Below, one piece after another: positions 1,249-12,042 of a stretch of DNA of 12,119 nucleotides (position 1 is the first letter of the stretch; each line of letters begins with the position of its first letter). A model generated the notes under the pieces. The model made no database searches and had not been told where the DNA came from. It saw only the letters and a list, made by a program, of their open reading frames with translations. The translations under genes were made by a program, and so were the position numbers. Source of the stretch: a virus (taxonomy: Duplodnaviria; Heunggongvirae; Uroviricota; Caudoviricetes); IMG/VR virus record IMGVR_UViG_2698536618_000022, positions 1 through 12,119 of that record; one strand, given 5' to 3'.

Positions 1249-1688
1249 ACGTAAACTTTTCCGGTTGTTGTCGATATCTCCCTATCCCTCAACCGGAAAA
1301 TAATAATACTAAAGTGCTTAGCCCTGCTAATAATCACCTAATCCAAACGCCTCATTCATGTTCTGGTACAGTCGCTCAAATGTACTTCAGATGCGCGGTT
1401 CGCTGATTTCCAGGACATTGTCGTCATTCAGCGACCTGTCCCGTGTATCACGGTCCTGCGAATTCATCAAGGAATGCATTGCGGAGTGAAGTATCGAGTC
1501 ACGCCATATTTCGCTATCAGGATTCTGTGTGATGGTTACATCGCCCGGCCCAGGGCTGTTTAGTCATCAGCGCTTTCTGACAGTGCTGAGATTTCAACCT
1601 GTTGCAGTAAAAATGAGTAGATATAAGGCAAGTGTGCTGCCAAACCTATCTTTTACGGGGTGAAGGTAGATTTCGTTTGAAGGGTATC

Positions 1689-1735
1689 TGGTGTCCCCTG
1701 CAGACATCTACTTGAAGCTGCAGGGGATTGATTGG
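1689..1735 (-). other. prophage attachment site core (attR-type junction): 15-nt identity to 3' end of tRNA-Arg (CTGCAGGGGACACCA) preceded by a degenerate T-arm-like copy
   Basis: plus strand 1689-1703 tggtgtcccctgcag is the reverse complement of the argW 3' end as I recall it; upstream on the minus strand TGCAG..CTGCA resembles a diverged T-stem; located 75 bp from the excisionase gene. Confidence 0.6.
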
Positions 1736-1776
1736 AATGGTGTTTTTTAGATGTGAGAAATATTTTACCCGCTATT

Positions 1777-1977
1777 TTACCCATTGGCGCGGCTTAAGAG
1801 CTTATTTTTGAATTCACAATGGTCACGATATAACCATCTTGCTCGCCCGTGGATAACTTTGGCTTTAGGCAGGTCGCCGGACTTAATCCGGTCATAGATG
1901 AAGGTTTTACCGAAGCCAGTATCGGCCATGATGAATTTCAAATCAACCAGTGAATCAGGTTGTAGTTCGTGTTGCAT
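1777..1977 (-). CDS. torI: excisionase / TorR inhibitor TorI (AlpA/Xis-family winged-helix DNA-binding protein)
   Basis: 66-aa ORF MQHELQPDSLVDLKFIMADTGFGKTFIYDRIKSGDLPKAKVIHGRARW...; matches remembered KplE1 TorI; AlpA-like helix-turn-helix core; GGAG SD about 10 nt upstream of the ATG. Confidence 0.85.
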   Translation of the reverse strand: MQHELQPDSLVDLKFIMADTGFGKTFIYDRIKSGDLPKAKVIHGRARWLYRDHCEFKNKLLSRANG

Positions 1978-2020: not shown

Positions 2021-2042
2021 ATAAAAAACCGCCATCAGGCGG
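2021..2042 (-). terminator. rho-independent terminator (minus strand) downstream of the 55-aa ORF
   Basis: minus-strand hairpin CCGCC-TGAT-GGCGG followed by TTTTTTATT; the stop codon lies within the stem. Confidence 0.55.
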
Positions 2043-2202
2043 CTTGGTGTTCTTTCAGTTCTTCAATTCGAATATTGGTTACGTCTGCATGTGCTATCTG
2101 CGCCCATATCATCCAGTGGTCATAGCAGTCGTTGATGTCCTCTGCTTCGATAACCCTGTCGAATGGCTCTCCATTCCATTCACCTGTGACTCGGAAGTGC
2201 AT
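2035..2202 (-). CDS. hypothetical small protein (55 aa)
   Basis: ATG at 2200-2202 with GGAGA SD 6 nt upstream; below the 60-aa cutoff of the ORF track; flanked by terminators on both sides; MHFRVTGEWNGEPFDRVIEAEDINDCYDHWMIWAQIAHADVTNIRIEELKEHQAA. Confidence 0.5.
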   Translation of the reverse strand: MHFRVTGEWNGEPFDRVIEAEDINDCYDHWMIWAQIAHADVTNIRIEELKEHQAA

Positions 2203-11103: not shown

Positions 11104-12042
11104 ATGACAAATACAGCAAAAATACTCAACTTCGGCAGAGGTAACTTTGCCGAACAGGAGCGTAATGTGGCAGATCTCGATGATGGTTACGCCAGACTAT
11201 CAAATATGCTGATTGAGGCTTATTCAGGCGCAGATCTGACCAAGCGACAGTTTAAAGTGCTGCTTGCCATTCTGCGTAAAACCTATGGGTGGAATAAACC
11301 AATGGACAGAATCACCGATTCTCAACTTAGCGAGATTACAAAGTTACCCGTCAAACGGTGCAATGAAGCCAAGTTAGAACTCGTCAGAATGAATATTATC
11401 AAGCAGCAAGGCGGCATGTTTGGACCAAATAAAAACATCTCAGAATGGTGCATCCCTCAAAACGAGGGAGGTTCTCCTAAAATGAGGGACATCCCTCAAA
11501 ACGAGGGAAAATCCCCTAAAACGAGGGATAAAACATCCCTCAAATTAGGGGATTGCTATCCCTCAAAACAGGGGGACACAAAAGACACTATTACAAAAGA
11601 AAAAAGAAAAGATTATTCGTCCGAGAATTCTGGCGAATCCTCTGACCAGCCAGAAAACGATCTTTCTGTGGTTAAACCGGATGCTGCAATTCAGAGCGGC
11701 AGCAAGTGGGGAACAGCAGAAGACCTGACCGCCGCAGAGTGGATGTTTGACATGGTGAAGACCATCGCACCATCAGCCAGAAAACCGAATTTTGCAGGGT
11801 GGGCTAACGATATCCGCCTGATGCGTGAACGTGACGGACGTAACCACCGCGACATGTGCGTGCTGTTCCGCTGGGCATGCCAGGACAACTTCTGGTCCGG
11901 TAACGTGCTAAGTCCGGCCAAACTCCGCGACAAGTGGACCCAGCTCGAAATCAACCGTAACAAGCAACAGGCTGGCGTGACAGCTGGAAAACCAAAACTC
12001 GACCTGACAAACACTGACTGGATTTACGGGGTGGATTTATGA
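11104..12042 (+). CDS. O: replication initiator O (lambda O-like), containing the origin iterons
   Basis: 312 aa; MTNTAKILNFGRGNFAEQERNVADLDDGYARLSNMLIEAYSGADLTKRQFKVLLAILRKTYGWNKPMDRITDSQL... matches lambda O. Confidence 0.95.
   Translation: MTNTAKILNFGRGNFAEQERNVADLDDGYARLSNMLIEAYSGADLTKRQFKVLLAILRKTYGWNKPMDRITDSQLSEITKLPVKRCNEAKLELVRMNIIKQQGGMFGPNKNISEWCIPQNEGGSPKMRDIPQNEGKSPKTRDKTSLKLGDCYPSKQGDTKDTITKEKRKDYSSENSGESSDQPENDLSVVKPDAAIQSGSKWGTAEDLTAAEWMFDMVKTIAPSARKPNFAGWANDIRLMRERDGRNHRDMCVLFRWACQDNFWSGNVLSPAKLRDKWTQLEINRNKQQAGVTAGKPKLDLTNTDWIYGVDL
11451..11620 (+). repeat. ori-lambda-type replication origin inside O: iterons (ATCCCTCAAAACGAGGGA-like, about 6 copies) followed by an AT-rich unwinding region
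   Basis: repeats catccctcaaaacgaggga, ttctcctaaaatgagggac, atccctcaaaacgagggaa, atcccctaaaacgagggat, atccctcaaattaggggat, atccctcaaaacaggggga; then acaaaagacactattacaaaagaaaaaagaaaag. Confidence 0.85.

Follow-up and report, generated by a model that had tools for sequence, protein, structure and literature searches.

The segment from position 1689 to position 1800 of the DNA analysed here (the window, 12,119 nucleotides in full) is, with high confidence, the attR site of a lambdoid and probably P22-like prophage that carries the recombination module of KplE1, HK620 and Sf6 and is inserted in the 3′ end of argW. An attR of the KplE1/HK620 type is already known, having been mapped by experiment in E. 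coli K-12, and the present one is real but ordinary, and of little importance as a discovery. Every defining feature of this kind of attR half that can be tested in a sequence is present, here or in relatives; protein binding and competence for excision are predicted. The module as such comes with a solved structure for its recombination directionality factor (RDF), mapped binding sites and an in vitro assay. Binding sites on attR are reportedly mapped in two papers by Panis, one of 2007 in J Biol Chem and one of 2010 in Virology, and no such map was found in the other accessible literature citing KplE1. The set of 27 lineages described below gives a sequence-level map of the constrained positions in the KplE1/HK620/Sf6 att family, and one small oddity in it lends itself to testing, namely an inverted copy of the crossover segment, which varies in step with the core.

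Positions 1250–1800 were compared by megablast with 5,426 complete E. coli genomes, and the matches are of two classes. Chromosome-type matches span 1250–1703 and end at 1703, with a tRNA-Arg annotated at the match end, and prophage-side matches of the K-12 type (KplE1, torI) begin at 1689 and span 1689–1800. The two classes overlap by 15 bp, and these are exactly the core, tggtgtcccctgcag at 1689–1703, that had been picked out from the sequence and attributed to a tRNA 3′ end. Read on the minus strand, this core gives the last 15 nt of the tRNA-Arg(CCU) gene argW (CTGCAGGGGACACCA), so that the junction carries the argW 3′ end, CTGCAGGGGACACCA(T). At an empty site (L002) the order is cscB – argW (minus strand) – yfdC, with the last 15 nt of the tRNA lying under the match, and in K-12 the same 15 nt beside torI are annotated as the pseudogene pawZ, at the end of 'cryptic prophage CPS-53'. 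The breakpoints at 1703 and 1689, the empty site and pawZ all bear out the attribution: 1689–1703 (minus strand) is the displaced tRNA 3′ end left by integration, the equivalent of pawZ, and it marks the attR junction. The prophage boundary is fixed to the base, at 1703/1704, and the insertion site is argW, beside the csc sucrose island. ARAGORN reports no tRNA in the window, as is expected where argW is reduced to 15 nt.

The published KplE1 core is 16 nt long (CTGCAGGGGACACCAT; PMC2951348). Here the shared core is 15 nt and not 16, position 1688 being C rather than A, because the bacterial flank is the csc sucrose island and not dsdC. The gene flanking attR, at 1–1248, encodes a LacY-family transporter (cscB), and in relatives it adjoins cscA.

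Several other features were seen in bacterial flanks. At the attR sites of L036, L094, L222, L012, L014, L022 and L028 the flank leaves the argW 3′ end within or just after the core, for example GACAC/TTTAAAGA and TGCAGGGG/GCAATACC, which suggests integration at other targets or at secondary sites. Many strains annotate a short DUF4942 remnant between cscB and argW (1250–1688 in the window; 4328–4510 in L001), and the cscB–argW spacer therefore looks like the scar of a decayed mobile element. Directly after the cscB stop codon, at 1257–1302, there is an 11-bp inverted repeat (TTTTCCGGTTG ... CAACCGGAAAA) that is likely to be the cscB terminator. A second, terminator-like hairpin (GGCAGCACACTTGCC followed by TTATATC) lies on the minus strand at 1627–1641, in bacterial DNA about 48 nt past the core; it probably served argW as its own terminator and stayed behind at attR, where torI transcripts would end at it.

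The window extends 10.4 kb into the prophage, and the second core and the integrase gene were seen in relatives only, namely strain CAU16175 and K-12. The junction of CAU16175 is 99.8% identical to that of the window, and the order in this strain is yfdC – argW – intS – P22-like morphogenesis and lambdoid early region – torI – core – cscB. The core 15-mer is present at both ends of this complete prophage, about 37.7 kb (37.65) apart, and at both prophage ends in L003 as well as in L009, which is CAU16175. At the far end intS adjoins an intact, rebuilt argW, and K-12 is arranged in the same way. HK620 and Sf6, as free phages, have the order int – attP – xis, and both records annotate the attP core at the equivalent position. 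The original prediction had placed the integrase gene at the other end of the prophage, there being none between the core and torI, and had expected the same core there. The layouts of CAU16175, K-12, HK620 and Sf6 show that the placement of the integrase is right for this module, with intS standing beside argW in CAU16175 and K-12, and in both of these the far end carries the same core.

On the phage side of the junction, the 97-bp P arm (1704–1800) differs at one base from K-12 attR, from HK620 and from Sf6, position 1719 being T in the window and A in the others. A 135-bp attR substrate has been used for excision in vitro, and the primer attR-IHF2 that goes with it is CTCTTAAGCCGCGCCAATGG (PMC3509656). 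This primer is the reverse complement of 1781–1800 (minus strand), where it sets the outer limit of the substrate. Given the one-base difference and the position of the primer, the interval originally singled out as an attachment site of the KplE1 kind – correctly, as the P arm shows – corresponds to roughly the whole functional P arm. The excision apparatus on the attR side would thus appear intact, one base away from a substrate proven in vitro.

The site can be compared directly with its closest known counterparts. It shares with the KplE1 (CPS-53) attR of E. coli K-12 the core, a torI gene with a 100% identical protein product, the orientation of torI towards the core and, apart from 1719, the P arm, the 135-bp substrate ending at the equivalent of 1800. 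It differs in its flank (cscB of the csc island here, dsdC in K-12), in the length of the core (15 versus 16 nt) and in the prophage behind it, which has a full lambdoid early region here whereas K-12 retains a 10-kb remnant. The attP sites of HK620 and Sf6 (Lederbergvirus) are 98.6–99% identical over 1689–1980, and their records annotate the attP core and, in HK620, also the tandem repeat as an attP repeat; these are unrecombined attP sites, whereas the window has the P-arm half joined to bacterial DNA.

The gene that adjoins the junction is torI, a recombination directionality factor, at 1777–1977 on the minus strand (66 codons) and reading towards the core. Its product matches PDB 1Z4H, 'Tor inhibition protein', over its full length (E = 6.6e-43), and the gene is annotated under that name in relatives. 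TorI binds cooperatively at five sites on attL (PMC2951348, PMC3509656), where both the TorI sites I1–I5 and the IntS P′ sites are located (PMC2951348). These attL TorI sites coincide with the pentamers GTTCG, GTCCG and GATCG, at offsets 25, 45, 88, 98 and 108.

The surroundings of torI hold further elements. A 16-nt stretch on the minus strand at 1997–2012, TTGCAGGTTCGATTCC, reproduces the argW T arm exactly (0.01 such copies expected by chance) and lies upstream of the ATG of torI, at a distance of 20–35 nt. It contains GTTCG, the pentamer that marks TorI sites on attL, and may therefore be a box for TorI autoregulation; the torI promoter has been termed non-characterised (PMC2951348). We considered the T-arm copy as the relic of an older att site and set this aside, since what other genera retain is just the inner CAGGTTCGATTCC, at times duplicated, which points to a regulatory box. 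Upstream of the torI homologues of Serratia, Citrobacter, Edwardsiella, Pantoea stewartii and Erwinia phages this inner element is kept, with diverging flanks, and the Midgardsormr38 group has it in two tandem copies. Directly upstream of the box and the start codon lies a strong hairpin resembling an intrinsic terminator (2026–2045, minus strand; AAGCCGCCTGATGGCGGTTT followed by TTTATTGCC), which would insulate torI from early-left read-through. At the other end of the gene, a 43-codon orf at 1653–1784 (minus strand) is the N-terminal part of the orf known as hkaB in HK620 and gene 17 in Sf6, which spans the attP core in these free phages and is split by integration. It is probably not a gene, because conservation along the arm follows the binding sites rather than codons.

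Overlapping and following the 3′ end of torI are two tandem repeats which, to judge from their sequence, are arm-type sites of the integrase IntS and not TorI sites. A script check confirmed the coordinates of all the motifs reported earlier, among them attttaccc at 1762–1770 and 1774–1782, with a period of 12. The direct repeat is really a 10-mer, TATTTTACCC, at 1761–1770 and 1773–1782, and on the torI strand the pair reads GGGTAAAAT-AGC-GGGTAAAAT. Both copies had been described as overlapping the end of torI, and this is so for one of them: the distal putative arm site (1774–1782, minus strand) contains GGG TAA AAT, that is, the Gly66 codon and the TAA stop, while the core-proximal one (1762–1770, minus strand) lies 7 nt beyond the stop.

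Recurrence of the repeats elsewhere in the prophage, on the other arm and in relatives, which the original prediction had made the measure of their role, is observed in each case. Between the cores of the CAU16175 prophage GGGTAAAA occurs five times (about 1.2 expected by chance), with two copies at the torI end, three within 45 bp upstream of intS and none elsewhere. K-12 attL has three copies of the motif immediately upstream of intS, a direct one overlapping the −10 box and two inverted ones ending at the intS ATG. TAAA is present in every published arm-type P′ site of IntS, one of which overlaps the −10 box (PMC2951348, PLoS Genetics); the K-12 attL copies match on both counts, which supports the arm-type reading. 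IntS itself consists of an N-terminal Arm DNA-binding domain (Arm-DNA-bind_3, PF13356), a central domain and a catalytic domain, so that a motif on both arms of attP is accompanied by an arm-binding domain, as in a heterobivalent tyrosine integrase. The HK620 record annotates its positions 1441–1463, the equivalent of 1761–1783 in the window, as an attP repeat.

For comparison among relatives, five phages and about 90 unique prophage junctions were gathered with TorI homologues and reduced to 27 lineages below 88% identity, from Escherichia, Klebsiella, Erwinia, Serratia, Citrobacter, Dryocola, Pantoea, Tatumella, Rouxiella and Edwardsiella. A first scan of viral contigs returned only TorI loci with 100% identity, which were used for population variation and not for divergence; the scan was repeated for divergence with the Edwardsiella, Rouxiella and Pantoea homologues. 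The pair GGGTAAA-N5-GGGTAAA is invariant in all 27 lineages, representing at least 10 genera. The first copy always holds the last Gly codon and the stop of the torI homologue, and the distance from repeat to core is equal in all but a few out-of-register sequences, such as L028.

The motif shared with the attL and P′ sites, the conservation, the Arm domain of IntS and the HK620 annotation are the grounds for assigning the repeats to the integrase. The earlier suggestion of arm-type sites for either the integrase or the excisionase therefore stands for the former and falls for the latter. Binding of TorI to the tandem ATTTTACCC repeats would be in keeping with their position next to torI, and RDF sites tend to be direct repeats spaced by about one turn of the helix, but we consider it most unlikely: GTTCG, searched for on both strands of 1689–1800, occurs on neither, the repeat motif is the one common to the published IntS P′ sites, and the five cooperative TorI sites lie on attL (PMC3509656, PMC2951348).

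The 9-mers of the direct and of the inverted repeat (the latter is described below) are each found only at the places given, within the 12-kb window. Dinucleotide-shuffled sequences yield 1.3 local direct 9-mers, 0.35 direct 10-mers and 1.5 inverted 9-mers per window, so that the repeats taken alone are not significant; what establishes them as real is the set of exact comparative breakpoints, the recurrence at the other arm and the conservation across genera. That they are chance matches, as the roughly one local direct and one inverted 9-mer expected per shuffled window might suggest, can for practical purposes be discounted in view of their position, their recurrence at attL and, decisively, their conservation in at least 10 genera.

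Conservation across the 27 lineages marks out the two arm sites, CA(A) and YTR (these always at the same place), TTnGAyGT, which reaches 90% or more among the lineage representatives, and TGCAGGGGAC-CC. Inside the core an imperfect dyad, GAYGTM / GACRCC, surrounds the seven bases TGCAGGG. In Erwinia phage EhrS49 (GGTGTC..GACACC) and in L230 (GGCGTC..GACGCC) all six positions of this dyad are paired as an inverted repeat, and in Edwardsiella (GGCGTA..AACGCC), which has C:G on the two sides where E. coli has T:A, five of six are. No segment other than TGCAGGG(G) is shared by every attR junction once those with differing flanks (L022, L028, L012, L014 and L036) are counted in, and attP copies vary immediately to its left (C, A or T). 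From the dyad and this common segment we infer a C–O–C′ layout in which strand exchange would take place in the overlap segment TGCAGGG at 1696–1702, between a putative half-site C′/B′ at 1690–1695 (GACACC) and a putative half-site C on the phage side at 1703–1708 (GATGTC), the latter proposed from its conservation and its dyad relation to C′; all three are read on the torI strand, the minus strand.

Between the core and the arm sites there is an IHF-like site, AATCAATCCCCTG, at 1721–1733 on the minus strand, which fits the consensus WATCAANNNNTTR with one mismatch, and a T6/A6 tract lies 10 bp upstream of it at 1743–1748. The window contains 11 matches to the IHF consensus where 16.6 are expected, the match at 1721–1733 being no rarer than chance. 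We keep it as a candidate because its CA(A) and YTR are conserved at a fixed place in the 27 lineages, and because attR is said to have one functional IHF site, in the 2010 Virology paper of Panis et al. An IHF site is also implied by the name that the published attR primer carries, attR-IHF2 (PMC3509656).

The arm sites, the IHF site and the C–O–C′ elements, the assignment of which we infer, suggest how the site would work. The two GGGTAAAAT repeats would bind the N-terminal arm-binding domain of IntS, a bend induced by IHF at about 1721–1733 would bring the arm-bound IntS to the core, and strands would be exchanged in TGCAGGG (1696–1702), between the imperfect inverted half-sites GATGTC and GACACC. 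TorI would act from its five GTTCG-type sites on attL, and not from attR.

The P′ arm of lambda attP has the layout C′ – H′ – P′1 P′2 P′3, with an A-tract and an IHF site between the arm sites and the crossover. The arm described here resembles it, with tandem arm sites about 60–85 bp from the crossover and an A-tract and IHF-like site between. However, the sequences are unrelated, lambda has three arm sites whereas there are two at a 12-bp period here, the KplE1-type integrase has a P4-type arm-binding domain (PF13356), and the KplE1 RDF sites lie on the integrase-gene arm, where they overlap its promoter (PMC2951348).

The order of elements is the same, and the spacing nearly always so, in Klebsiella phage Chronis, in Erwinia phages Midgardsormr38 and EhrS49, and in prophages of Serratia, Citrobacter, Edwardsiella, Rouxiella, Pantoea and Tatumella, with L028 among the few that are 1 nt off. 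In these related modules the xis stop lies in the first arm site, the second arm site follows 12 bp on, and the core is 69 bp further. They differ from the window in that DNA identity is 75–80%, the core follows the local tRNA, and some Pantoea clades are without the inverted repeat.

This inverted repeat is formed by ctgcagggg at 1718–1726 and cccctgcag at 1695–1703, separated by a 14-nt spacer. It is 10 bp long in the window (1694–1703 and 1718–1727), and only 7 bp, CCCCTGC / GCAGGGG, are constant across relatives. Position 1719, at which T extends the repeat here, is usually C or T among 58 E. coli-type haplotypes. These haplotypes are otherwise near-identical, and at 1714–1719 they carry 13 different 6-mer alleles, with AGCTTC, the allele of the window, seen once; a repeat of 9–10 bp is thus private to the window's copy. 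The repeat was therefore reported at the right coordinates, but as a conserved feature it extends over 7 bp and not over the full 9–10. Mean pi at 1714–1719 is 0.27, compared with 0.105 at torI four-fold sites, and within the arm this spacer, which separates the distal repeat arm from the C half-site, is probably the one block free of constraint. The idea that it is a hypervariable mutation hotspot was rejected, single synonymous sites reaching 0.5–0.6.

The distal arm of the repeat, GCAGGGG at 1720–1726, reads CCCCTGC on the torI strand and repeats the putative overlap segment in inverted form, with one base added. E. coli, Klebsiella and Erwinia phages all have it unchanged next to a diverging spacer, and it occupies the N4+YTR part of the IHF-like site. 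In 71 unique main-clade sequences the 7-bp helix is the best of 3,003 possible and is 98% Watson–Crick, and RNAalifold returns it as the only consensus helix in the 93-nt arm across the 27 lineages. Among the 27 representatives 88.9% of cells pair, as against 39–58% with the partners slid, two pairs are changed on both sides, and the covariation score is reached in one of 500 shuffles. The double changes are in Rouxiella (CCCCTAC/GTAGGGG) and Edwardsiella (TCCCTGC/GCAGGGA), where core and distal arm are altered together and the change in the core presumably follows the host tRNA. Pantoea-type sequences L237, L239, L240, L221–L225 and L233 are without the inverted overlap copy (arm positions 59–79), and in these clades its place is taken by a directly repeated C half-site, TTAGRCG ... 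TTAGAYGTC. L243, L246 and L250 have a CTCCTGCA element 5 nt further from the core, and one lineage has the inverted copy displaced outwards by this distance. The comparison indicates that the 7-bp heart of the inverted repeat is real, and its pairing would join the overlap segment to the 3′ portion of the IHF-like site.

We propose, tentatively, that this inverted 7-bp copy of the overlap, fixed 18 bp away in the IHF-like site and covarying with the core, is a selected functional part of the att family. If so, it might act in the torI mRNA, as a 3′-terminal hairpin that sets the dosage of excisionase, or in the DNA, as an element that influences recombination. A distal inverted overlap copy that changes with the core was not found described in the accessible literature.

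It is also conceivable, though less likely than not, that the distal arm is just the 3′ half of an IHF site, with no separate function, its complementarity to the core being kept by quasi-palindrome template switching or by some constraint at the DNA level. The arm does coincide with the N4+TTR of the IHF-like site, both of the covarying positions are free under the IHF consensus, and the clades that have lost the repeat keep CAA-N4-TTR. Yet IHF needs no CCCC at N4, and CCCC is invariant in Escherichia, Klebsiella, Erwinia, Serratia and Citrobacter, with the neighbouring spacer bases saturated with change.

We think it rather doubtful that the repeat is maintained as a hairpin of the torI transcript, with the tRNA 3′ end as its 3′ arm, that would stabilise the message at its 3′ end or direct its processing, although several results favour this. 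The RNA fold of 1680–1790 has a predicted z of −2.6, and with DNA parameters 1685–1735 is predicted to fold at −12.6 kcal/mol (z = −5.3). The helix is the sole consensus structure in the 27 lineages and has the two-sided changes and the excess of pairing given above, G–U pairs retain its outer 5 bp even in the Pantoea clades, and in L243 and L246 pairing is retained with the repeat 5 nt further out. Against a transcript hairpin, the stem has no U-run after it, one-sided changes show no wobble bias (5 C-to-T transitions and 4 C-to-A transversions, a split that as a test for an RNA helix says little), and the inner two pairs are lost in several clades. An intrinsic terminator at the inverted repeat was considered separately and rejected: the terminator scan reports none at 1694–1727, where the tail is ACACCAGAUACCC. 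A role of the distal arm in recombination at the DNA level was weighed beside the hairpin and the template switch, and none of the three readings is preferred here.

The inverted CTGCAGGGG repeats might, lastly, be taken for two core-type integrase sites flanking the crossover, since in the cores of tyrosine recombinases inverted repeats enclose the exchange region, and since the pair is conserved, but this is highly improbable. The distance between the arms is 14–18 bp, where known tyrosine recombinases have 6–8 bp, and attB (argW) lacks the spacer, which makes strand exchange across it impossible; for these two reasons the arms cannot flank the crossover, and the CTGCAGGGG pair does not have the form of a core-type repeat. 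One arm is itself the segment common to all junctions, no GACAYC-like half-site stands beside the distal arm, and a better dyad, GAYGTM-N7-GACRCC, lies inside the core.

Apart from the attachment site, the window contains a cluster of direct and inverted repeats of the ATCCCTCAAAACGAGGGA type at 11498–11570, inside the gene for replication protein O (11104–12042); these repeats make up the iterons of a lambda-like ori.
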